A model generated the notes under the pieces. The model was not told the DNA's origin. It searched no databases and saw only the letters and a list, made by a program, of their open reading frames with translations. A stretch of DNA of 64,000 nucleotides from the IMG/VR virus record IMGVR_UViG_2695421015_000001, positions 32,001 through 96,000 of that record; one strand, 5' to 3'. Each line of letters starts with the position of its first letter. The first letter of the stretch is position 1. The DNA is from a virus (taxonomy: Duplodnaviria; Caudoviricetes). The translations under genes were made by a program, and so were the position numbers. This document shows positions 31,705 to 58,370 of the stretch, in pieces.

Positions 31705-32298
31705 GGTGGTCTCCTTGGTTTGGGTTGCTTAGATCGGAGCGTCGCTATGCGGCGCTCCGAGCTAAGCCCGCGCCCATGCTGCGACATGGGCGGGGTTAGC
31801 TGGCCGCGCGGCTTAATGGAGCCGCGCGATCTCAGTGCATCTCTCTTCCTGTTCGGTACTGCGGCCCGGTATTCGGCAATCCTGCGCGGCTACTACGGTC
31901 ACGATGGACATTCGCCGGCGGCGTCTATGGCGCGCTCTTGGATGTTAGCCTATTGGCGCGGCCCGCCTTGCTAGAGCGGCGCGTCAAAACCTTATCGGCA
32001 TTCGCGAGGGGAAAAGAGGCAAACAACATAGCCCTTGAACCATTTGCTTTGACGCCGCGCGATTGCGCGGGGCGGAAGAGTTGGCGGGATATGCCTTGGG
32101 TTATGAGAGGATAGGAGCGCGGGAGATACTGGAGTCGCATTGTTGACTAAGCGATGAGTCGCTATGCAGCTAATGGGACCGTCGGCAGGGTTCCTTACCG
32201 GGCTTTCGCTTAGCCCCTCCGACAACAAAATTGGACAGCGCGCGCAATGCGCTGTTGCGACCACTTTTCGGCCGCGTCCTTTATCCTTTCTACTTGTC

Positions 32299-38766: not shown

Positions 38767-38841
38767 GCTGGAATAGCTCAGCGGTAGAGCAGCAGTTTTG
38801 TAAACTGACGGTCGGTGGTTCAATCCCATCTTCCAGCACCA
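38767..38841 (+). tRNA. trnT: tRNA-Thr(TGT)
   Basis: Acceptor stem GCTGGAA/TTCCAGC, D-arm TAGCTCAGCGGTAGAGC, anticodon loop TTTGTAA, T-loop GGTTCAATCC, encoded CCA. Confidence 0.92.
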
Positions 38842-46251: not shown

Positions 46252-46734
46252 ATGCCATACAAAGCACTCGCGAGCGACGGTAAGGACGGCCGCAAGCGCA
46301 AAGGCAAGCGCACGACCAAGAACTCCTCGACCGCCCCGCGCAAGCTCGTCATCACCGCCCGGTTCAGGGAGAAGGCCGCAGAGGCCGTCCAGTACCGGCT
46401 GCTCGGATACAAGTTCCAGCAGATCGCCGACGAGATGAAGATCGACATCGCGTACGCCCACCGCCTCGTCAAATGGGCCAAGGACCGCGAGCCGGTCGAA
46501 GGCGCTGCCGAGCTGAAAGCGCTCATGAGCGACCGTCTCGAAATGATGCTGACCGGCACGCTCGGTAATGCATTCGAGGGCGACAGCGAGGCGCAGGAGC
46601 AGTCGCGCCGGACCATGGAAATTCAGGCCAAGCTCCACGGCCTCTACGCGGCGCAGAAGCTGGAGCATTCAGGCGAGGTCGCCGGAGGCGGCACGTCCGT
46701 GATCGTCATCTCCTCGGACGATGCCAAGCTCTAA
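46252..46734 (+). CDS. terS: putative terminase small subunit (HTH)
   Basis: HTH-like G..FQQIADEM.I...AHRLV; KLHGL..A.KLEHSG; overlaps terL. Confidence 0.65.
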   Translation: MPYKALASDGKDGRKRKGKRTTKNSSTAPRKLVITARFREKAAEAVQYRLLGYKFQQIADEMKIDIAYAHRLVKWAKDREPVEGAAELKALMSDRLEMMLTGTLGNAFEGDSEAQEQSRRTMEIQAKLHGLYAAQKLEHSGEVAGGGTSVIVISSDDAKL

Positions 46735-48376
46735 GGGCGTCCGCAAAGTCCAGATCGGGGACAACGGCGGCCCCCCAATCAATAGCTGGGGAGAGAAGGG
46801 CGCTACGCCCGCTCAACTCAAGGCGACCAAACTGCTGGGCGGCCCGCAGCGCCACACCTGCCTCGTCGGCGGCGCGCGATCGGGCAAGACCACGACGCTG
46901 GTCCGCACCATCATGCTGCGTGCGATCCGCTTCCCGGGGTCGCGCCATGTGATCCTGCGCTTCCGCGCAGTCCACGCCGACGCTTCCGTCGCCCTCGATA
47001 CGATCCCGAAGGTGATGAAGATGTGCTTCCCCTCGCAGGGGTATAAGCACGTCAAGTCGCCTCACAACCTGATCCGCTTGCCGAACGGATCGGAAGTCTG
47101 GATCGGCGGCCTCGATGACGCCGCCCGCGTCGACAAGATCCTCGGCAACGAATACGCCACCATCTTTCTCAACGAGTGCAGCCAGATCAGCTGGTACTCG
47201 GCCAAGCTCGTCCGCTCCCGTCTCGCCCAGGTGATCGACGGTTGCACGCAGCGGATGCTCTACGACATCAACCCGGTCGGCAAGTCGCATTGGACCAACC
47301 AGCTGTTCGGGCTGAAGGTCGACCCCGACAACGGCCGCACGCCGCTCGGCGATCCCGAAAACTACGAGCGGATGTTCATCAATCCGATCGACAACGCCCA
47401 GAACCTCGACGCCGGCTACGTCAAGGAACTCGAGAACTCGACCGGCAACTACAACAAGCGCTTCTTCAAGGGCGAGTACATCGACGAGGTCAACAACGCG
47501 CTTTGGACCCTCGATCTGATCGAGGCTTGCCGCGTCAACCCCGGCGAGGAGCCCGAGTTCGTCCAGACCGTGATCGCAATCGACCCGTCGGGGGCGAGCG
47601 AAGCGGGCGATTCATCCGACATCGAGATGAAGCCGCTGAACGACGAGATCGGCATCATCGTCGCCTCGCTCGGCAAGGATCAGAAAGTCTACCTGCGCGC
47701 CGACCTGTCGTTGGTGGCCGGGCCCATCGGTCAGGGCATCGATCCCGAGACAGGGCAGAAGCGTCTTGGATGGGCCGAGGTGGCGGTCGCTGCCTACCAC
47801 TATTACAAGGCCGATCACATCCTCGCCGAGATCAACTACGGCGGCGGCATGGTCGAGGCCGTGATCCGCGCCCAGGACGGCAACGTGCCGGTCAAGACCG
47901 TGCGCGCCTCCACCGGCAAGCACATCCGGGCCGAGCCTGTATCCACGTTGTATACGCGCGACGGCGTCCGCCACGTCGGCCAGTTCCCGCAGCTGGAGGA
48001 TCAGCTTTGCGCGTTCACGTCGCTCGGATACGGCGGCGCCAAGTCGCCGGATCGCGCTGATGCGTGGGTCTGGGCAGTGACGGATATCGCGCTGCAGGAC
48101 GGCGCCAACAACTGGATCGAATACTACAGAAGGCTCAACGAGAAGGCCGGCACGCTTCCAGAGCAACAGGCCGACGAGAAGAAGCCGGAGTTCGGCTACG
48201 CGATCACTCCGCCAGACGCCAACAAGAAACACCGCGTGCTCGTGCCAGAGGGCATCAGCACGCTCTTCCTGATCGACGGGACCAGCATGCTGGTTCCCGT
48301 TGACCGCATCGTCTCGGTCTCCGCGGAGGACGCCACCGCATTTGGAATGCGCGGTTGGGAGCGTCTGGCCGCCTGA
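46721..48376 (+). CDS. terL: terminase large subunit
   Basis: Walker A GGARSGKT, Walker B IFLNE, nuclease IAIDPS, E.NYGG, SPDRADAWVWA. Confidence 0.92.
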   Translation: MPSSKGVRKVQIGDNGGPPINSWGEKGATPAQLKATKLLGGPQRHTCLVGGARSGKTTTLVRTIMLRAIRFPGSRHVILRFRAVHADASVALDTIPKVMKMCFPSQGYKHVKSPHNLIRLPNGSEVWIGGLDDAARVDKILGNEYATIFLNECSQISWYSAKLVRSRLAQVIDGCTQRMLYDINPVGKSHWTNQLFGLKVDPDNGRTPLGDPENYERMFINPIDNAQNLDAGYVKELENSTGNYNKRFFKGEYIDEVNNALWTLDLIEACRVNPGEEPEFVQTVIAIDPSGASEAGDSSDIEMKPLNDEIGIIVASLGKDQKVYLRADLSLVAGPIGQGIDPETGQKRLGWAEVAVAAYHYYKADHILAEINYGGGMVEAVIRAQDGNVPVKTVRASTGKHIRAEPVSTLYTRDGVRHVGQFPQLEDQLCAFTSLGYGGAKSPDRADAWVWAVTDIALQDGANNWIEYYRRLNEKAGTLPEQQADEKKPEFGYAITPPDANKKHRVLVPEGISTLFLIDGTSMLVPVDRIVSVSAEDATAFGMRGWERLAA

Positions 48377-48724: not shown

Positions 48725-50395
48725 GTGGTCGATAACGTCGGCGACGATCCTGACCTGAACAAGGTCTCGACTCCGCGTGGAGAGGGTCGCAGCATGACCG
48801 AGCTGTCGCAGCTCGGCTCCTATGACGTGCGCGTGAATGGCGCGCGCCCGCAGTCTGGCGTCCAGTTCTCCTACACTGGCCCGGACTGGATGGGGCCGCT
48901 GCTGCCGATGCAGCCGATCGCGCCGCCCGAGGTCGCCGGCCGCACATGGGACTATGTCCCCGGCTACAACCTCACGACGCAGCCGCGCGCCTATGAGCCG
49001 GTCAGCTTCCATGCCCTGCGCATGCTCGCCGAGAGCTTCGATCCCGTGCGCCTCATCATCGAGCGCCGCAAGGATCAGATGTGCCGGATGCCGTGGGCGA
49101 TCCGGGTCAAGCACGACGATCCGACCAAGAAGCGGCCAGCGATCACCGAGTTGCCGAAGGCCAAGCGTCAGCGCCTGGCCGACATCACGAATTTCTTCAA
49201 GTACCCCGACCGCGAGCTGACCTTCCGGGTCTGGCTGCGGGCGCTGCTGGAAGACCTGCTCGTCCTCGACGCGCCCAGCCTCTACTGCGAGCACAGCATC
49301 GGCGGCGACCTGATCGGCCTGCGCTACATCGACGGCTCGACCATCAAGCGCGTCATCGACGACTGGGGCCGCACGCCGCAGCCGATCGTCTGGACCGGAC
49401 AGCCTTTCGACTGGAACGGCTACACCGTCACGGCTGAGAACTTCCGGAGCCTCGGCTTCGTACTCGCCCCCGGCGAGGTCGTCGCCCACCAGATGCCGAT
49501 GGGTATGAAGACCCCGAAGCAGGTGCTGCTTCCGCCCGCCTATCAGCAGGTGCTCAAGGGTCTGCCCGCGGTCAACTACACGACGTGGGACCTGATCTAT
49601 CGTCCGCTCAATCTGCGCCCCGGCAAGGCCTACGGCCTGTCGCCGGTCGAGCAGGTGATGATGACCGTCTCGATCGCGATGCGCCGCAGCGTCGCTCAGC
49701 TCGAATACTTCCGCGAGGGCAACCAGCCCGACGCCGTGTACGGCCTGCCGGAGTCGTGGACGCCGGATCAGATCCAGCGTTTCCAAGACTATTGGGACGG
49801 CCTGTATTCCGGCAATCTGGCGATGCGCCGACGGATGAAGTTCGTCGCCGGCGAGGGCAAGTACACCCCGACCCACGAACCGCCGCTCAAGAACGAGTTC
49901 GACGAGTGGCTGGTCCGCATCGTCTGCTTCGCCTTCTCGTATCCGCCGCAGGCCTTTGTCGCGCTCTCGAACCGCTCGACCGCCGAGCAGCACGAGAAGA
50001 CGGCCGAGGAGGAGGGGCTCGACCCGCTCAAGGAGTGGGCGGGTGAGATGTTCAACGAGATCATCACACGCCGTTTCGGCGACGATGACATCGAGTTCGC
50101 GTGGACCGAAGAGGAAGAGGTCGACCAAGAAAAGCAGTCGACCATCCTGCGCGGCTACGCCGAGGACGGCATGCTCACCATCAATCAGGTGCGCGAGAAG
50201 CTCGGCGAGCAACCCGATCCGAACCCGGCGGCCAACCAGCTCATGGTCAAAACGGCCACCGGCTACGTGCCGATCGACGCCAACCTGATCGACAAGCAGG
50301 TCGAGGCGGCCAAGGCGATGGCAGCTGCCGTCCCGCCGACACCCACACCGGTCACGACCGGCGGGCCCAAGCCCGCCCCCGACGAAGACGAGTGA
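48725..50395 (+). CDS. portal protein
   Basis: After terL; LLEDLLVLDA, YGLSPVE, YFREG..P, ICFAF..PP, TINQVRE.LG..P. Confidence 0.9.
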   Translation: MVDNVGDDPDLNKVSTPRGEGRSMTELSQLGSYDVRVNGARPQSGVQFSYTGPDWMGPLLPMQPIAPPEVAGRTWDYVPGYNLTTQPRAYEPVSFHALRMLAESFDPVRLIIERRKDQMCRMPWAIRVKHDDPTKKRPAITELPKAKRQRLADITNFFKYPDRELTFRVWLRALLEDLLVLDAPSLYCEHSIGGDLIGLRYIDGSTIKRVIDDWGRTPQPIVWTGQPFDWNGYTVTAENFRSLGFVLAPGEVVAHQMPMGMKTPKQVLLPPAYQQVLKGLPAVNYTTWDLIYRPLNLRPGKAYGLSPVEQVMMTVSIAMRRSVAQLEYFREGNQPDAVYGLPESWTPDQIQRFQDYWDGLYSGNLAMRRRMKFVAGEGKYTPTHEPPLKNEFDEWLVRIVCFAFSYPPQAFVALSNRSTAEQHEKTAEEEGLDPLKEWAGEMFNEIITRRFGDDDIEFAWTEEEEVDQEKQSTILRGYAEDGMLTINQVREKLGEQPDPNPAANQLMVKTATGYVPIDANLIDKQVEAAKAMAAAVPPTPTPVTTGGPKPAPDEDE

Positions 50396-50558: not shown

Positions 50559-51989
50559 ATGACCACGCATCGACTGATCCCGCCGGCCGTCGCGTCAAAG
50601 GTCACTCTCGACGGTCGCGTCTATGATCCGGCCGCCGGTGGGCAGGACGTCCCCGACTATGATTCCATGGCGCTGCAAGCGAATGGCTGGAGCTTTCTGG
50701 CCGTCAGCGGCCCCACGTCGGCGCGACCGCACGCGGCTGTCGGGCCTTATCCGTTGCTTCGCGGCACCACGTTCTGGGACACGTCCGTCGACCATCTGGT
50801 CTCGTGGGACGGGGCAACATGGCGCGACGAAAACGGCAACATACCGCAGGTCACATTCCCGCTGCAGGCGCGGATGGTCGGCCTTGGTGACTCCATCATG
50901 GCAGGCTCGGTGGGGCCGAGCCTTCTGAACCCGGCGCTCTACTACAGCGGTGGCCGGTTCTATCTCGTATCCAACCAAGGCGTTGGCGGGTCAACCACGG
51001 TCGATATGCTTTCGCGGAACGCCACGACCACCGGCGGCGTCGCCAGCACGCTGACGCTGTCTCCTGACGTGGTCGATCTGCACATCGGCACCAACGACAT
51101 CACGGGCCTTGGGTCGGGCGCGGCGGCGATCTTCGCCAACATCCAGGCGATCGTCAGCGAACTCACTGCCGGCGGCGTGAAGGCGGTCTTCGTCCACACC
51201 GTCCTGCCGCGCAGCGACAGCGCGTGGACCGCCGCCTACGAGACGGTCAGGCAGGCGCTCAACGCCAGCATCATGACGCTGCAGTATCCGGCGATCCCGG
51301 TGAACCTCGAAACCATCGGCTTCAACTCGACGATCGGTGTCGACACTGTCGAGGGTCTGCACCCGAACAGGCCCGGCGCGTGGCTGGTCGGATCGGCGGT
51401 CGGCGCAGCATGGGCGTCGAAAGCGGTTACCAACTCTGTGCTGTTCAACAGCGCATCCGACTGGGGCAATCTGCTCGTCGACAACGACATGACCGAGGGA
51501 ACGGCCGGCGTCCTTCTTGGCACTGGCACGACCGGCAGCGTTCCTACCGGGTGGAATGCCGGCGTCAACGTGACCGGCATGACAACAACGTGCTCGATCG
51601 CGACAAAGAACGGCTTCCCTCAGATGGTCGCCAACTTCAGCGGGACGCCCGGCTCCTCCGGCATTCTCCTGCTCTATCGAGATCAGGCCTACAGCGGCAA
51701 CATCGGCGATGTCTACGACTGCTGGGCTGATGTCGAGATGGCCGGACTGACCGGAGTCGGCGGCACCTTTTTCGCAACGGATGGCGTGACGGTTTGGGAG
51801 GCCTCCGGCAACGCGCTGGGGCAGCCGCCGAATTTCAACGGCATCATGCGCGGCGGCCCGGCCGCCCCGCTCACGGCGGCCCGCACCGTGTCCAGATTCC
51901 AGTTCGGCGTCTATCTCGAGTCCGGCGTGGCCTGCAGCGGAACAATCAAGCTCTCGCGCTGCACCTGGCGCAAGAACCCATCACCGTAA
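50559..51989 (+). CDS. virion-associated SGNH/GDSL esterase
   Basis: GDS, N.GVGG, GTND, EGLHPN blocks; N-terminus paralogous to 52022-52321. Confidence 0.8.
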   Translation: MTTHRLIPPAVASKVTLDGRVYDPAAGGQDVPDYDSMALQANGWSFLAVSGPTSARPHAAVGPYPLLRGTTFWDTSVDHLVSWDGATWRDENGNIPQVTFPLQARMVGLGDSIMAGSVGPSLLNPALYYSGGRFYLVSNQGVGGSTTVDMLSRNATTTGGVASTLTLSPDVVDLHIGTNDITGLGSGAAAIFANIQAIVSELTAGGVKAVFVHTVLPRSDSAWTAAYETVRQALNASIMTLQYPAIPVNLETIGFNSTIGVDTVEGLHPNRPGAWLVGSAVGAAWASKAVTNSVLFNSASDWGNLLVDNDMTEGTAGVLLGTGTTGSVPTGWNAGVNVTGMTTTCSIATKNGFPQMVANFSGTPGSSGILLLYRDQAYSGNIGDVYDCWADVEMAGLTGVGGTFFATDGVTVWEASGNALGQPPNFNGIMRGGPAAPLTAARTVSRFQFGVYLESGVACSGTIKLSRCTWRKNPSP

Positions 51990-52021: not shown

Positions 52022-52321
52022 ATGACCGCGCCGCTCACGCACCGTCTGATCCCGCCCGCCAACGGCGGCAACGTCAAGGTCAACGGCCGCACCTATTCCG
52101 CCACTGCCGGCGCTCAGGACGTGCCGGAGTTCGACGCCACGCATCTTCAGGCCAACGGTTGGACCTACCTCGCACCGTCGGGGCCGACCACCCAGCGTCC
52201 GACCAGCGAACTCGGTGTCTATCCGCGCGTGCGCGGCGCCAAGTTCTGGGACGCCACGCTCTCGCACATGGTGATCTGGGACGGCGCGAACTGGCGCAAC
52301 GAGGCGGGCGCCATCTCGTAA
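52022..52321 (+). CDS. small virion protein
   Basis: Paralog of the N-terminal 95 aa of 50559-51989. Confidence 0.75.
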   Translation: MTAPLTHRLIPPANGGNVKVNGRTYSATAGAQDVPEFDATHLQANGWTYLAPSGPTTQRPTSELGVYPRVRGAKFWDATLSHMVIWDGANWRNEAGAIS

Positions 52322-52482
52322 TTCCGCTCCTCGGCCAGTCGCAGGTCGATCGACCACAGCACCGCAAGCATGACGCGGTTGTTGATGTGGCGCCGCCACT
52401 CCTCGTCGCTCAGAACCGCGATGTCGCCGGTGGCTGTGATCTCAAGGTCATCCATGCGGATCACCCTTAAGAGGAAATTGAA

Positions 52483-55400
52483 GTGACCGCAATCGAGAAA
52501 TCGACCTTTGCCGAACCGGCATCGGCGACGAGCGGCTTGCAGGGCTACGACCTCGAAGGCGCCAGCAACAACAAGCGCACGTTCTATCGCCATGGCGGCA
52601 AGATCACGCTTGGCCCCGAGAAGTGCGAGGAGCCTGACGTCGAGAAGCAGGCGCCGATCCTTGCCGCCGGTTTCGCGCTCGTCACCGACGAGGGCAAGGC
52701 GCTGTTCCTCAAGCGCAGCGGCGGCGATGGCGGCGACCACGCCGGCGAGTGGTGCTTCCCGGGAGGGAAGATCGAGCCGGGCGAGACGGCCTTGCAGGCC
52801 GCGATCCGCGAGACGTTCGAAGAGATCAGCTTCAGGCTCGATCCCGAGGGCGACCGCGTCGAGGTCTGCCGCGTCACGCTCAACGGTGTCGACTTTACCA
52901 CCTTCTTCCAGCGCGTCGACGAGTTCGAGCCCAAGCTCGACCATGAACACACAGCGTTTCGCTGGGCTTCGGTCGAAAAGCCGCCGGAGCCGCTGCATCC
53001 CGGCGTTCGCGCCTCGCTGCCGCTGGTGATTTCGCAGGCGATCGACACGACTATGAAGGTCGCCAAGGGCGAGAAGCGCACGCTCTACATCAAGCGCCGG
53101 CTGCGAAACGCCGAGACGCTGAAGCAGTGGGCGGACGCTAACGGCTTTCCGACCACGCTTACCACCGACGATATGCACGTCACCATCGCGTATTCGCGCG
53201 AGCCGGTGGAGTGGGCACAAGTTCCGCGCTCGTCGCAGCCGATCATTCGGATCGAAGGCGGCGCACGCACTCTCGATCGTCTCGGCAAGGATGGCGAAGC
53301 GCTCGTGCTTCGCTTCTCGTCCGACGATCTCGCCTCGCGTCATCGCGAGATCCACGACGCTGGCGCCGTCTGGTCGTGGCCTGACTACAAGCCGCACATC
53401 ACCCTGACCTACCAAGGAGAGGGGCTTCCGCTCGATCGGTTGGTCCCTTGGGACGGCGTGCTCGAATTTGGCCCCGAAGAATGGGCCGAAGTCAAAGAAA
53501 ATTGGATGGCAACCGTCGTCGAGAAATCCGACGCAGGAGAAGTAGAAATGGATAACCTTTCCTTGTTCGTGCAGCTGCACAAGGTCGATGTCGAGAAGCA
53601 GACCGTCTACGGCACTGCGGTCGAAGAAGTGGCCGATCGCGCTGGCGAGATTTTCGACTACGCCACCTCCAAGGGCGAGTTCGAGAAGTGGTCGGGCGAT
53701 ATTGAAAAGTCCACGGACGGCAAGTCCAAGGGCAATGTGCGCGCGATGCATGGCAAGGTCGCCGCCGGCAAACTGACCGACATCGGCTTCGACGACAAGC
53801 GCAAGGCGATCGATGTCGCCGCCAAGATCGTCGACAAGGACGAATGGCAGAAGGTTCTGGAGGGTGTTTACACCGGCTTCTCCATCGGCGGCTCTTATCT
53901 CAAGCGCTGGACCGACGGCGATTTGAAGCGCTACACCGCGCGCCCCGCCGAAATTTCGCTGGTCGATCTGCCGTGCGTACCGACCGCCACCTTCTCCATC
54001 ATCAAGGCGGATGGCTCCCAGGAGATGCGCAAGTTCCAGCAGCCCGCTGCGGACGAGCCCGTCACCATCAGCAACGAGGCCGTCGCAGAGCGCGCGACCG
54101 ATCTCGCCAAGGCCGCCGGCGATGCCGGCCAGTGGCTCGCTCATATCGCCGATGCCCGCAAGCAGCTCGAAGACGAGGTCGCGAAGGCGGCTGAAGCGGC
54201 CAAGGTTGTCGAGCCGGTGGTTGTTGACACAGAAGTCAACAAGGACGGTGTGACCGTCGATGCCGACGCCGGCCGGACCACTCCCGACGACGTCGAGCAG
54301 GTCTGGGTATCCAAGCGCCTGCCCGGTGCGACCTTCGCCAAGAAGGGCGACCTCGCCAAGGCGCTGCTCGAACTCGACGCCAAGGAAGCGGCTGCCGCCG
54401 CTGCCGCGCCGGTGCTTGATGCGCTCAAGGCCGTGACCGGTACCGGCATGGATACTCAGGCCGTGTCCACGCACAAGGACAAGAACTCCAAGACCAACGT
54501 CGAGCACGCATCCGGCAAGACGGACAAGACCAACCCCGAGAAGGTCGACGGCAGGAAGCCGAAGGGCGCCGACACCAACGTGGAGGCAACCTCCGGCGTC
54601 AAGCCCGCCGGCAACAGCGTCAACACCGAACAGACCGACCCGAAGAACAACGAGACGACCGACCTCTATGGCGGTGCAGACTCGACGGCTGGCAAGCGCG
54701 CCCCGATCGAGAGCGTGAAGGATCTCGAGATCGCGCTCAAGTCGCACCAGCCCGGACAGGCCGGTCTCGCGATGAAGCGTCACCTGATCAAGGCCGCACG
54801 CACTCTCGGCTCGATCGACCTGCTGCCGGAAGGCTGGGTCAACAAGGCCGAGAAGGTCGAACTGGAGAAGGCGGCCGACATCCACTTCGTGGCCGACCTC
54901 CTGCACATGCTCGCCTGCGTGGAATGCCTTGAAGAGCGCGCCGAGTTCACCTCGCTGTGGGGCGGCATCACCGTTCCGAAGGAGCTGACCGACCGCTTCG
55001 GCAGCGCGCTGGTCGAGATCGGCGACATTGTCTCCGACATGCTCGACCTGGTGCTCAACGAAATCCGCACCGAGGAGGCGAGCGAGGCCTCGAAGGCGGC
55101 GGTGTTCGTCGATCTGCTCAAGCGCGGCGCCCGTCACTCGGCTCGCGACAAGGCCATCATCAAGAAGACCCACGACCACATGGTCGAACTCGACAAGTCG
55201 TGCTGCGGCGGCGGTATGGACAAGACCGTGACCGTCGATGTGGCCAAGGCTGCCGAAATCGAAGCGGTCACCGCCGAGAACGAGCAGCTCAAGGCCGAGA
55301 AGGCCGCCCATGGCGAACTGCTCAAGGACATCAAGGCCGGCATCGAAGCGATGACGACCAAGATGGCCACCATGGAGACCGAGAACGCGGCGCTCAAGAA

Positions 55401-55584
55401 GAGTTCCGAGGAGATCAGGGTCGATCTCTCCGCCATCCGCTTCACGCCGGCGCCGGTGCCACCCGGCACGTTCCGCGTGATCGAGAAGGGCCTGCCCATC
55501 CAGGACATCTCCACGATCAGCGACGCTGAACTTCAGCGCCGCGGCGCGGAGGCGCAGGCCACCCGGTTCATGGGGCCTCGCTAA
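52483..55584 (+). CDS. fusion: NUDIX hydrolase + Acb1-like 2H phosphoesterase + prohead protease + scaffold
   Basis: Nudix box GKIEPGETALQAAIRETFEE; HVTIAYSR and HITLTY; VRAMH, GFSIGG, EISLVD.P; coiled-coil tail. Confidence 0.85.
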   Translation: MTAIEKSTFAEPASATSGLQGYDLEGASNNKRTFYRHGGKITLGPEKCEEPDVEKQAPILAAGFALVTDEGKALFLKRSGGDGGDHAGEWCFPGGKIEPGETALQAAIRETFEEISFRLDPEGDRVEVCRVTLNGVDFTTFFQRVDEFEPKLDHEHTAFRWASVEKPPEPLHPGVRASLPLVISQAIDTTMKVAKGEKRTLYIKRRLRNAETLKQWADANGFPTTLTTDDMHVTIAYSREPVEWAQVPRSSQPIIRIEGGARTLDRLGKDGEALVLRFSSDDLASRHREIHDAGAVWSWPDYKPHITLTYQGEGLPLDRLVPWDGVLEFGPEEWAEVKENWMATVVEKSDAGEVEMDNLSLFVQLHKVDVEKQTVYGTAVEEVADRAGEIFDYATSKGEFEKWSGDIEKSTDGKSKGNVRAMHGKVAAGKLTDIGFDDKRKAIDVAAKIVDKDEWQKVLEGVYTGFSIGGSYLKRWTDGDLKRYTARPAEISLVDLPCVPTATFSIIKADGSQEMRKFQQPAADEPVTISNEAVAERATDLAKAAGDAGQWLAHIADARKQLEDEVAKAAEAAKVVEPVVVDTEVNKDGVTVDADAGRTTPDDVEQVWVSKRLPGATFAKKGDLAKALLELDAKEAAAAAAAPVLDALKAVTGTGMDTQAVSTHKDKNSKTNVEHASGKTDKTNPEKVDGRKPKGADTNVEATSGVKPAGNSVNTEQTDPKNNETTDLYGGADSTAGKRAPIESVKDLEIALKSHQPGQAGLAMKRHLIKAARTLGSIDLLPEGWVNKAEKVELEKAADIHFVADLLHMLACVECLEERAEFTSLWGGITVPKELTDRFGSALVEIGDIVSDMLDLVLNEIRTEEASEASKAAVFVDLLKRGARHSARDKAIIKKTHDHMVELDKSCCGGGMDKTVTVDVAKAAEIEAVTAENEQLKAEKAAHGELLKDIKAGIEAMTTKMATMETENAALKKSSEEIRVDLSAIRFTPAPVPPGTFRVIEKGLPIQDISTISDAELQRRGAEAQATRFMGPR

Positions 55585-55589
55585 AATAG

Positions 55590-56057
55590 ATGAGCGCTAC
55601 CACGCTCGACAATCGCGCGCCGCGGCCACCCGCGGCAGCAACCAAACCACTCGGCACCAATCCAAAGGACATGGTCGGCCTCAAAAAGGTCGACCTGTCC
55701 GTGGTGCCGGGGATCGCCTTGTTCCACGAGGCGATGGCCATGATGGACGGAGCCCGGAAGTACGGCCCGTTTAATTGGCGGGACAACGCCGTTATGGCCC
55801 GCATCTACGTCGCCGCCGCTCTACGGCACATCCAATACTGGGCGGCCGGCGAAGAAGTAGCCAAGGATTCCGGGGTTCATCATCTCGGCCATGCGCGCGC
55901 ATGCCTTGGCATCATTTTGGACGCACAGGCGACCGGTAACCTGATCGACGATCGGGCGAAGTCGGCTGTGCTGATCGAAGCGCTCGATGCGCTCAACGAC
56001 ACGGTCCGGCTCGGCGCCGAAGCGCGCAAGGCTGCCGCCGACGGAGTCAACCGATGA
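55590..56057 (+). CDS. dATP/dGTP diphosphohydrolase-like protein (DUF5664)
   Basis: K..LS.VP...GARKYG..NWR...AALRH..W..GE....DSG.HHL.HA.AC. Confidence 0.8.
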   Translation: MSATTLDNRAPRPPAAATKPLGTNPKDMVGLKKVDLSVVPGIALFHEAMAMMDGARKYGPFNWRDNAVMARIYVAAALRHIQYWAAGEEVAKDSGVHHLGHARACLGIILDAQATGNLIDDRAKSAVLIEALDALNDTVRLGAEARKAAADGVNR

Positions 56058-56762: not shown

Positions 56763-58370
56763 ATGAACGCAATCGTGCGTAACATCGCATACAGCGAGCA
56801 TCTGCCGCTGGAACTGCAAAAGGGCTGGGCGCCCATCTACGGTCAGGGCGGCAACATCGACCGCGCTGCCATCGCCGCTGAAGTCGCGAGCTTCCTCGCC
56901 TCGGTGCAGAAGACGCAGGCCGTCAAGGACTTCGTTCCGGACTTCCTGTCCAAGAGCACCTTCCAGCAGGCCGGTTCGGCCACCTCGGGCCTGACCTACT
57001 ACGATCTCGAGCTCGGCGCGAAGTTCGTCTATCCCGTGCTGACGCCGCTGCGCAATGAGATCCCGCGCGTCACCGGAAAAGGGGGCATCCAAGCCGCCTG
57101 GAGGGCGGTCACCGGCGTCAACACCGGCGGCATGCGGATCGGCGTCTCGTCCGGCAACCGCGGCGGTGTGCAGGCGGTCTCCACGCAGGACTATTCTGCG
57201 GCTTACCGCGGGCTCGGCCTGGAAACCAACGTCGACTTCGAGGCCGAATACGCCGGCCGCGGCTTCGACGACATCCGCGCGATCGCGGCCAAGGTCGGCC
57301 TCGAAGCCACGATGATCGGCGAAGAGGGCGTGCTGCTCGGCGGCAACACCTCGTTGCAGCTCGGCATCACACCGACCCCGACGGTGACCGCCTCGGCCAC
57401 TGGCGGCGCGCTTGCGGCGGCGACCTATTCGGTCATCTGCGTCGCGCTCGCGTTCGACGCTGTGCTCTACGGCTCGATCGCTGGCGGCATCCAGGCCTCC
57501 ATCACCCGCACCAACGCTGACGGCTCGTCCGACACCTTCGGTGGCGGCTCGGCCCAGAAGTCGGCCAACGCCACCGGCACCGTGGCCACCGGCACCGCCG
57601 GCTCGCTCACCGCGACCGTCACCCCCGTCACCGGCGCCTGCGGCTACGCATGGTTCTGGGGCGCAGCGGGTTCGGAAGTGCTCGGCGCTATCACGACCAT
57701 CAACTCGGTCGCGATCGTGGCTGCTGCAACCGGCACCCAGACGGCGGCGTCGCTGCCGGCGGGAGACTTCTCGACCAACAGCCTCGTGTTCGACGGCATC
57801 ATCACCCAGATCCTCAAGAATGGGTCGAATGCCTACTTCGCGATCCAGTCGAGCGGCACCGCAGGTGTCGGCACCCCGCTCACCGCGGATGGCTCCGGTG
57901 GCATCGTCGAGATCGACATGGCGCTGAAGGATCGTTGGGATAACTACCGCCTGTCGCCCGACACCATCTGGGTGAACTCGCAGGAGGCGCTCAACATCTC
58001 GAAGAAGATCCTGCAGGGCAACAGCAATGCGGCCCAGCGCTTCGTCTTCGACAGCCGGCAGGACTCGCTCGGCGGCGGCATCATGGTGCGCTCGTACCTG
58101 AACCGCTTCTCGATGGGCGGCGCCAAGTCCCTCGACATCCGCATCCATCCGAACATGCCGCCCGGCACGATCGTGATGACCAGCCGCTCGCTGCCGTACC
58201 CCGTGTCCGGCATCGCGAACGTGCTGCAGGTGCGGGCACGGCAGGATTACTACCAGATCGAGTGGCCGCTGCGGACCCGCAAGTACGAGTCCGGCGTGTA
58301 CTGCGACGAGGTGCTGCAGTGCTACTTCCCGCCCGCTTTCGCGGTGATCACCAACATCGGTAACGGCTAA
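56763..58370 (+). CDS. major capsid protein
   Basis: Position after protease/scaffold; GGAGA RBS; YDLE..AK...P.LTPLRN.IPR; 535 aa. Confidence 0.8.
   Translation: MNAIVRNIAYSEHLPLELQKGWAPIYGQGGNIDRAAIAAEVASFLASVQKTQAVKDFVPDFLSKSTFQQAGSATSGLTYYDLELGAKFVYPVLTPLRNEIPRVTGKGGIQAAWRAVTGVNTGGMRIGVSSGNRGGVQAVSTQDYSAAYRGLGLETNVDFEAEYAGRGFDDIRAIAAKVGLEATMIGEEGVLLGGNTSLQLGITPTPTVTASATGGALAAATYSVICVALAFDAVLYGSIAGGIQASITRTNADGSSDTFGGGSAQKSANATGTVATGTAGSLTATVTPVTGACGYAWFWGAAGSEVLGAITTINSVAIVAAATGTQTAASLPAGDFSTNSLVFDGIITQILKNGSNAYFAIQSSGTAGVGTPLTADGSGGIVEIDMALKDRWDNYRLSPDTIWVNSQEALNISKKILQGNSNAAQRFVFDSRQDSLGGGIMVRSYLNRFSMGGAKSLDIRIHPNMPPGTIVMTSRSLPYPVSGIANVLQVRARQDYYQIEWPLRTRKYESGVYCDEVLQCYFPPAFAVITNIGNG

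Follow-up and report, generated by a model that had tools for sequence, protein, structure and literature searches.

A prophage head-assembly polyprotein with Nudix and Acb1-family domains, possibly cargo loaded into the phage head

The gene considered here lies in a 64,000-nucleotide (nt) stretch of DNA from a virus of the class Caudoviricetes (IMG/VR record IMGVR_UViG_2695421015_000001, positions 32,001 to 96,000), called the window below and numbered from its own first letter. The element is a prophage in a bacterial chromosome, and the gene is single-copy in the complete 9.09-Mb genome. It encodes a polyprotein in which a short peptide resembling the capsid protein, a Nudix hydrolase domain, an Acb1-family 2H phosphodiesterase domain, a prohead protease and a scaffold-like tail follow one another in a single frame. 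An earlier sequence-only reading had listed the motifs of this 1033-residue frame, and all of them were found where that reading had put them. The features of the gene are the following.

52470..52475, + strand: Shine-Dalgarno (SD)-like AGAGGA of the long form, followed after 7 nt by GTG 52483
52483..55584, + strand: whole open reading frame (ORF), 1033 residues, 112.2 kDa, the Nudix-Acb1-protease-scaffold polyprotein
52501..52563, + strand: N-terminal "STF peptide", residues 7-27, STFAEPASATSGLQGYDLEGA, placed after Lys6 and copying a motif of the capsid protein
52645..53052, + strand: Nudix hydrolase domain, residues 55-190, with the Nudix box at residues 94-117 (nt 52762-52833)
53077..53517, + strand: Acb1-family 2H phosphodiesterase domain, residues 199-345, with H232-x-T234 and H305-x-T307
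53535..53550, + strand: internal translation-initiation region, AGGAGA (53535-53540), 7 nt, then ATG 53548 (Met356), in frame
53548..54057, + strand: prohead (capsid maturation) serine protease domain, residues 356 to ~525, with H423 (nt 53749) and S467 (nt 53881)
54058..55581, + strand: scaffold-like C-terminal part, residues ~526-1033, with long helices, a low-complexity insert and a coiled coil at ~920-985

The ORF opens with GTG and runs without an internal stop. From the preceding stop codon up to the conserved N-terminal peptide, the sole start candidate is GTG 52483, and the duplex energy of its SD sequence with a generic anti-SD is -6.0 kcal/mol.

Domains of the polyprotein

Residues 199-343 match the Pfam family PF23474 (Acb1) over profile positions 1-143 of 144 (E 6.6e-37, 126.9 bits, cut-off 27). 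When the 2H part was searched against PDB sequences, the C-terminal domain of the portal of cyanophage Pam3, 8hds, came first (E 6.4e-17) and Acb1 7t26 second (E 1.1e-9); HVT at residue 232 (nt 53176) and HIT at residue 305 (nt 53395) align with the HxT pair of the 7t26 chain. The structural comparison was based on an AF2 model of residues 1-355, made from 17 sequences with a mean pLDDT of 79, which contains two confident globular domains (55-190 and 199-345) joined by a short linker (191-195) and is disordered at 1-49 (pLDDT below 50) and 349-355. The Acb1 domain reaches pLDDT values of mostly 83-97 in this model, whose top Foldseek matches are 7t26 (E 6.6e-10, TMt 0.70) and then 7t27, both from Acb1 of phage FBB1. 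All 19 aligned homologs have H232 and T234, and 18 of them have H305; at position 307, 18 of the 20 aligned residues are T and two are S. Profile, alignment and model thus support an Acb1-family enzyme with the full HxT/HxT tetrad, for which cleavage of cyclic oligonucleotides (for Acb1, 3'3'-cGAMP and cyclic trinucleotides) is predicted, and the Acb1-like identity first proposed from the letters alone is borne out by Pfam, the 7t26 alignment and Foldseek. On the side of the Pam3 phage, residues 464-615 of the portal chain 8hds are the Acb1-like C-terminal domain that gave this best PDB match.

The domain ahead of it matches Pfam NUDIX PF00293 over residues 61-177 (E 1.7e-17, 64.1 bits, cut-off 21.1). 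The Nudix box (GX5EX7REUXEEXGU) is present with G95, E101, R109-E110 and E113-E114, a Ser replacing the last Gly, and these residues (G95, E101, R109, E110, E113, E114) are conserved in 16 of 16 homologs. In the Foldseek search the Nudix part resembled Ap4A hydrolase, RppH and MutT at E ~1e-8, so that the suspected Nudix box is confirmed by profile, structure and residue conservation alike. These closest structures cover several substrate classes, the Atlas matches for the domain are generic Nudix clusters only, and a scan of NCBIfam returned no family, including any Nudix equivalog, at or above its cut-off.

Regarding the protease, the motifs MH (H423), GFSIGG (S467) and EISLVD (490-495) are all present; of 115 aligned homologs, all have H423 and 114 have S467, and the two are the predicted catalytic pair of a serine protease. 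A structure model of residues 356-660 (AF2, 95 sequences, mean pLDDT 87.5) gave as its only Foldseek matches at E <= 0.001 three chains of T4 gp21, 5jbl. VIA-align, an all-against-representatives structural search, likewise returned gp21 5jbl (Z 13.8, root-mean-square deviation 2.3 Å, 133 aligned), followed by the proteases of varicella-zoster virus (Z 7.1) and human cytomegalovirus (Z 6.3). These scores identify the core as a prohead protease of the assemblin/gp21 fold, with long helices behind it, as the sequence-only reading had suspected when it called the domain capsid-protease-like; with this, the per-domain structure comparison which that reading had proposed has matched the Acb1, Nudix and gp21 folds. 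In addition, the head maturation protease family phrog_9427 matches the domain (E 3.3e-9), which is ~30% identical to annotated capsid maturation proteases of Streptomyces phages. The sole Pfam protease match is a sub-threshold one to Peptidase_S78_2 (17.9 bits, cut-off 24) that spans residues 445-471 only.

In the part behind the protease, the model has helices at residues 531-544, 548-574 and 621-653, and weak coiled-coil Pfam matches fall at 922-984; the coiled-coil tail noticed earlier therefore corresponds to a helical tail with a coiled-coil segment at ~920-985. Conserved blocks of this part are common to the stand-alone homologs, and a scaffold role is probable by analogy with the protease-scaffold fusions of other phages and from the position of the gene. 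Some homologs carry a ChaB domain within the scaffold region, after the protease (P0020, residues 535-589; P0090, residues 648-703), and ChaB was also noted for P0015. ChaB was considered as a further N-terminal cargo and ruled out, as it lies C-terminal to the protease in P0020 and P0090.

Relatives, internal start and capsid-like peptide

The search for homologs covered 5.8 billion proteins and found 605 relatives among 8000 scored candidates, of which the best 120 were examined. Residue 1 aligns with Met356 of the window protein in 46 of the 120, and the core starts within the first 20 residues in 74; a protease-scaffold of 570-700 residues is therefore the ancestral form, with ATG 53548 as its start codon. 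About 40 of the 120 have N-terminal extensions. The cargo could be mapped in 24 homologs (P0003-P0027 and P0050), with both Nudix and Acb1 in nine, Acb1 alone in nine and Nudix alone in six; a tenth homolog with both domains, P0009, was left out because its junction is unmappable. Acb1 stands ahead of Nudix in seven homologs (P0004, P0008-P0012, P0014).

These 24 proteins come from other sources and hold Nudix, Acb1 or both in frame before the same protease core, which rules out a sequencing artefact. The earlier worry that an error might hide a stop before 53548 is excluded in the same way, the frame being open and the fused state kept throughout the mapped homologs. In P0033, P0040, P0043, P0046 and P0051, and at the N-termini of P0016 and P0026, extensions of ~200-370 residues without a Pfam match precede the same protease core, and these may be further cargo types.

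The AGGAGA-N7-ATG at 53548, which the sequence-only reading had placed at the protease boundary, is there exactly and in frame, and it equals the start of the stand-alone homologs. Of the 24 cargo-bearing homologs, 18 have a Met precisely at the aligned core start, five have one at most two residues away and one (P0050) lacks it, and the three residues ahead of the junction Met vary freely. Since residues 356-362 are unstructured in the model, this Met has no evident structural role. One homolog with an unmatched extension, P0040 (locus L189), has GTG at the junction position with a strong upstream SD, AAAGGAG.

To score initiation signals, the anti-SD duplex energy was computed for each in-frame ATG, GTG and TTG inside seven fused genes, the DNA of fused loci having been obtained for two from a genome scan and for a few more from viral scans; none of the 80 metagenome matches listed is a cargo-bearing locus. 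With the best site ranked 0, the junction start ranks 0 of 43 in the window and 1 of 39, 4 of 35, 0 of 35, 1 of 29, 0 of 39 and 1 of 56 in the others, hence first or second in six of the seven. In the window its energy is -7.4 kcal/mol with the generic anti-SD, stronger than that of the long-form GTG (-6.0) or of the capsid gene (-6.6). We conclude that the initiation region at the junction has probably been kept by selection, and we think it likely, on these comparisons, that the cell makes a short form of 72.8 kDa in addition to the long form of 112.2 kDa.

The N-terminal peptide links the polyprotein to the following gene of the same module.

56763..58370, + strand: major capsid protein gene, 535 residues, with GGAGA 7 nt before ATG 56763

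The product of this gene matches phrog_13692 (E 1.7e-138) and shares 29-31% identity with proteins annotated as major capsid or major head protein in Arthrobacter and Alicyclobacillus phages; on this similarity we take it as the probable capsid protein. A PDB sequence profile search with 36 capsid proteins gave no matches, and the capsid lead from the Atlas is weak (SU10_MCP in 15% of one cluster). Polyprotein residues 4-25 are identical to capsid residues 62-83 at 14 of 22 positions without a gap (E 1e-6), and the capsid motif K64/S65-TFQQAGSATSGLTYYDLE (nt 56952-57011; a slash marks the bond behind the Lys) is the template of the STF peptide. In its loose form, the motif occurs just twice in the six-frame translation of the window, once in each of the two proteins.

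In 36 aligned capsid sequences of the clade the motif K/STF.Q..SATSGLT[FY]YDLE.GAK is almost invariant, the residues ahead of its Lys are variable apart from the pattern L-x-K/S, and the similarity of the capsid protein to its phage homologs starts at residues 58-75. Capsid proteins of the HK97 type are cleaved after a Lys. By analogy, the capsid protein here may be cleaved after Lys64, and the polyprotein may bear the same free "STF..." N-terminus. Two other candidate cleavage sites in the polyprotein, V-V-E-K/S (residues 345-349) and T-M-K/V (residues 190-193), misfit the L-x-K/S pattern of the capsid protein and were set aside as speculation only.

The peptide was found in 26 polyprotein homologs, at residue 2 (MSTF...) in nine, directly after a Lys in 15 and in another context in two. 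A Lys-preceded copy lies between Acb1 and protease in P0022 and P0024, and deep in a longer extension in P0016, P0051 and P0066. Some homologs, such as the one at locus L255, consist of peptide, basic linker and protease only; it follows that the peptide is part of the protease-scaffold and that cargo has been inserted on one side of it or the other. The peptide is disordered in the AF2 model, and its sequence suggests either a mimic of a protease substrate or product, or a mimic of the capsid N-arm that docks to the shell. With respect to its surroundings, a run of Lys or Arg (e.g., RRRKRRR, KKKKKKK) follows it directly at L255, L256 and L257, the window protein being only weakly basic there, and a zinc-ribbon-like Cys-rich insert (CxxC ... 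C ... HC) follows it in P0003, P0007, P0015 and P0017 (alignment columns ~45-90) and is absent from the protein of the window.

Fusion of Acb1 to head proteins is not confined to this family. In a related genome of the same bacterial family (locus L010), one 388-residue frame joins Acb1 (E 1.5e-40) to an HK97-type Peptidase_S78 protease (E 1.4e-27), with Met and SD present at the junction; the alternative that L010 holds an Acb1 gene and a separate protease gene, suggested by one TGA within the match, was ruled out by the single open frame. A scripted frame search of L009 found no joint Acb1-protease frame of this kind. In another genome of the same bacterial family (L011), a 617-residue portal has a C-terminal Acb1. 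We also scanned 68 distinct Acb1-bearing frames from the 80 IMG/VR loci nearest to the Acb1 domain of the window, and their partners are Phage_portal_3 in 53, Phage_portal in six, DUF2213 in three, Phage_Mu_F in two, and Portal_Mu, Peptidase_S78_2 and NUDIX in one each.

Against 1.84 billion cluster representatives, the domain found 2294 proteins at E <= 0.001. Of the best 150 of these, 134 are longer than 240 residues, with Acb1 placed N-terminally in 62, C-terminally in 28 and internally in 44, and the remaining 16 have at most 240 residues. Proteases accompany the 62 N-terminal domains in the form of Peptidase_S78_2 (18), DUF2213 (13) and Peptidase_S78 (2), and the other partners are ChaB (7), ADP-ribosyltransferases (6 and 3), Nudix (4), InPase (1) and MuF (1). 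PHROGs classes three DUF2213-type partners as "head maturation protease" (E down to 8e-131). Among the closest relatives of this domain, a fused Acb1 is the rule and not the exception. By these sequence comparisons, fusions of Acb1 with portals and with three kinds of prohead protease have arisen repeatedly and independently, and this recurrence is explained most simply by selection for placement inside the head.

The neighbourhood of the gene is that of a head module, in the order terminase, portal, lipase, 99-residue ORF, polyprotein gene, PF18909 ORF, 179-residue ORF, capsid protein, adaptor and a weakly sheath-like gene. Because of this order, with the portal and the capsid protein around it, the polyprotein gene is the protease-scaffold gene of the prophage head module. 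The neighbours to be mentioned are the following.

46721..48376: terminase large subunit
48725..50395: portal
50559..51989: GDSL-type lipase, downstream of the portal gene
52022..52321: 99-residue ORF, directly upstream of the polyprotein gene
55590..56057: PF18909 ORF, with a dATP/dGTP diphosphohydrolase N-terminal domain (E 1.4e-24)

The 99-residue ORF is 56% identical to the N-terminal 95 residues of the lipase (52/93, E 2e-37), and from this similarity the two read as a duplicated N-terminal module within the head module. The PF18909 ORF, whose start lies 6 nt past the polyprotein stop behind a weak SD (-2.1), is the third nucleotide-hydrolase-like protein of the module. A sigma-70-like promoter was not found around the polyprotein gene, terminators are not in excess there, and a Pfam scan of the ten ORFs upstream of the terminase (35.7-46.7 kb) gave zero matches. 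Further upstream, a tRNA-Thr (TGT) lies at 38767..38841, ahead of the + strand phage genes, and the GC skew flips sign near 32 kb; together these may mark the prophage border.

Enzymes as head cargo and the alternatives

We consider it fairly probable that the gene encodes a head-assembly polyprotein with signal-degrading cargo that is loaded into the head. According to this proposal, an ancestral protease-scaffold gene would have gained Nudix and Acb1 in front, with the 21-residue capsid-like peptide preceding both. The long form (112 kDa), made from the weaker GTG start, would carry 39.5 kDa of cargo beside the 73-kDa protease-scaffold and would enter the procapsid via its scaffold part, which would bring the enzymes inside the head. 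At maturation the protease would digest the scaffold, and the folded enzymes could stay with the DNA in the head. They would then either pass into the next host with the DNA, or be abundant at the time when head assembly triggers defence. Acb1 would hydrolyse cyclic-oligonucleotide signals, and the Nudix domain a pyrophosphate-linked nucleotide, possibly a signal of the ADP-ribose type.

The sequence and model comparisons establish the architecture, the folds, the intact catalytic residues, the ancestral start at the junction and the recurrence of such fusions; in this scheme, we infer the use of the internal start, the encapsidation, the cleavage, the delivery and the substrates. Encapsidation of the cargo, taken separately, is plausible on the sequence evidence, with the balance slightly in its favour. 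The tethering to the procapsid, with packaging and delivery or with action near the sensed protein, that the sequence-only reading had proposed is likewise made plausible by the recurrent joining of Acb1 to portals and to three protease families. A bolder extension, which we regard as possible and put forward tentatively, assigns the central role to the STF peptide. It would mimic the mature capsid N-terminus, reached by removal of Met1 or by cleavage after the Lys, and would act as a transferable tag by which cargo docks to the capsid lattice or to the protease; the protease-scaffold of a widespread alphaproteobacterial phage clade would then be a modular loader, with the dose set by two starts, that couples an assembly protein sensed by CBASS (antiphage signalling based on cyclic oligonucleotides) to its own antidote.

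Several observations weigh against the proposal of head-loaded cargo, or against parts of it. A folded cargo of 39.5 kDa would need to be cleaved and unfolded in order to exit through the tail. A gene of the SMODS type was not found in the lysogen itself; on the other side, 42 of the 201 genomes sampled from the host genus do carry such genes, for the nucleotidyltransferases known as CD-NTases, which speaks for the proposal. The catalytic residue H305 is replaced by Asn in one homolog (P0007). An immune signal as the substrate of the Nudix domain is a guess, because its nearest structures are generic and no NCBIfam model reached its cut-off.

As to the second start, 105 of 3078 ORF positions carry an SD-like site as strong as that of the junction, and the fused loci examined at the DNA level are only five to seven, related to one another. 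The junction Met is also absent in two of three Acb1 fusions to the DUF2213/phrog_2229 protease family, and an internal restart is therefore not required by the fusion architecture. The claim of two isoforms in the sequence-only reading thus gains from the comparison within the family (a Met in 23 of 24 cargo homologs, together with the SD ranks); the DUF2213 type speaks against generality.

The alternative that survives best is an antidote acting in the producing cell. The fusion would make Acb1 and Nudix where and when the CBASS-triggering protease-scaffold is made, and encapsidation would be incidental. According to the text of Richmond-Buccola et al. (2023), expressing the scaffold domain of a prohead protease by itself triggers Type I CBASS toxicity, and the protease-scaffold is where escape mutations lie; because of these results late action in the producing cell gains weight. 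The text of Iyer et al. (2022) also raises head-associated effectors that counter immunity aimed at the packaging apparatus. Judged by the gene order, the fusion puts the cargo under late-gene control, and an internal start would uncouple the enzyme dose from the scaffold dose.

However, Acb1 is found equally often on the C-terminus of portals (12 copies per head in the text of the Pam3 structure paper), which is a poor route to a cytoplasmic enzyme. Co-expression could be achieved by co-transcription without any fusion, and the capsid-like N-terminal peptide is left unexplained. On these grounds we hold an antidote confined to the producing cell to be rather unlikely, while leaving it a real share of the probability.

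A housekeeping role of the two enzymes is improbable. The 2H domain would be a LigT-like 2',3'-cyclic phosphodiesterase for RNA repair, and the Nudix domain a MutT/RppH-like pyrophosphohydrolase that sanitises the nucleotide pool, processes RNA 5' ends or acts in decapping. The 2H domain does match the PHROGs family phrog_755, annotated as "RNA ligase" (E 1.9e-24), and more weakly the Pfam families LigT_PEase and 2_5_RNA_ligase2; the Nudix domain is closest to MutT, RppH and Ap4A hydrolase structures; and the nucleotide pyrophosphohydrolase-like PF18909 gene adjoins. Nevertheless, the Acb1 profile scores far better than the LigT-type ones (126.9 bits vs ~20, the latter under their cut-offs), and the best structural match is Acb1 itself. 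An RNA ligase or kinase partner was not seen among the head-module ORFs scanned, and RNA repair offers no evident logic for fusion to a head protein.

Finally, that the long ORF is an accident of stop loss, sequencing error or prophage decay, with only the 73-kDa form from ATG 53548 functional, is hardly credible: the ancestral start and its SD are intact and the element is a chromosomal prophage, but this reading is contradicted by 24 in-frame fusions of 37-74% identity from several sources that keep the catalytic residues of both enzymes, by the permuted order of Acb1 before Nudix in seven of the homologs, which requires selection on the fused state, and by the conservation of the N-terminal peptide and start.

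Relation to known phage systems

Two classes of well-known head proteins offer precedents for the cargo and for the second start. The internal proteins of T4 and Alt are loaded into the prohead core, lose their capsid-targeting sequence to gp21, stay in the head and are injected with the DNA, some of them acting against host defence. In T4 the cargo consists of separate products with a short N-terminal targeting peptide, whereas in the window protein it is covalently joined to the protease-scaffold; moreover, the N-terminal peptide of the latter resembles the capsid protein itself.

In the nested head genes of the lambda C/Nu3, Mu I/Z and P2 gpO type, a long and a short product come from two starts, and both are needed in head assembly. 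The gene of the window resembles the lambda C/Nu3 type in having an in-frame internal start with its own ribosome-binding site. The difference is that in those genes the internal start yields a scaffold from inside the protease gene, whereas that of the window would give the whole protease-scaffold, the upstream part being enzymatic cargo.

For the enzyme itself, the reference is Acb1 (the product of T4 gene 57B, and the FBB1 Acb1 of 7T26/7T27), described as an anti-CBASS 2H enzyme with an HxT/HxT tetrad in the text of Hobbs et al. (2022, PMC9117128). The domain of the window shares with it the 2H fold, the tetrad and the full-length PF23474 match, and has it as best structural match. The characterised Acb1 is a single-domain protein (the solved chain has 144 residues), whereas the domain studied here sits behind a Nudix domain in a head-assembly polyprotein of 1033 residues. 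Acb1 has so far been studied as a small soluble enzyme, and most of the closest relatives of the window domain are not free-standing. In the main text of Hobbs et al. (2022) the words "fused", "portal" and "capsid" do not occur, nor does "phosphoesterase" in that of the Pam3 structure paper.

The closest predictions are those of Iyer et al. The text of the 2017 paper (PMC5512222) reports 2H domains fused to MuF or portal proteins and proposes that they degrade defence-related nucleotides, and that of the 2022 paper (PMC9503650) regards 2H domains on MuF and portal, as well as T4-NudE-like Nudix domains on MuF, portal and a capsid-processing serine peptidase, as probably packaged and injected. 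The window protein fits the pattern of head-packaged effectors in the 2017 text, namely conflict-related enzymes joined to a protein that lies in the head interior of a terminase-portal phage, and our reading agrees with both texts on head packaging and on injection against nucleotide signals. An Acb1-prohead-protease fusion, a Nudix plus Acb1 double cargo, a retained internal start and a capsid-like peptide do not appear in these texts, although their figures or supplements may list such architectures. Beyond Iyer et al., no title or abstract among the papers listed by the literature searches concerned a portal- or protease-fused or virion-packaged Acb1; architectures akin to this one may be found in the supplements to Iyer et al. 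(2017, 2022) and to Hobbs et al. (2022).

A further comparison concerns the protein class to which the enzymes are joined. According to the text of Richmond-Buccola et al. (2023, bioRxiv 10.1101/2023.05.21.541620), the prohead protease-scaffold of Drexlerviridae phages is a determinant of Type I CBASS activation: every escape mutant of four such phages maps to it, and its scaffold domain alone causes CBASS-dependent toxicity. The Drexlerviridae protein has the same layout as the window protein, an N-terminal protease and a C-terminal helical scaffold. It lacks a fused anti-CBASS enzyme, and these phages escape by point mutation, whereas the window protein has fused enzymes. The window protein thus joins an anti-CBASS enzyme to the protein class that governs Type I CBASS activation in that report.

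If the enzymes are indeed in the virion, cyclic-nucleotide immunity could be disarmed before any phage gene is expressed, and our understanding of the timing of signalling and counter-signalling in CBASS, Thoeris and type III CRISPR systems would change. The window protein is a compact test case, with two enzymes, a second start that possibly sets the cargo dose, and a capsid-like peptide, perhaps a natural tag for loading cargo into HK97-type capsids, with a possible use in loading foreign proteins into phage heads. The principle will not surprise specialists, and both virion delivery of anti-CBASS enzymes and this possible tag become directly testable. The general idea of head-packaged 2H and Nudix fusions is already known, having been predicted by Iyer et al. 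(2017, 2022); the additions made here are the joining of Acb1 to the protease, also with Nudix as a double cargo, the ancestral start kept at the junction, the N-terminal peptide that resembles the capsid protein and the counts of fused Acb1.

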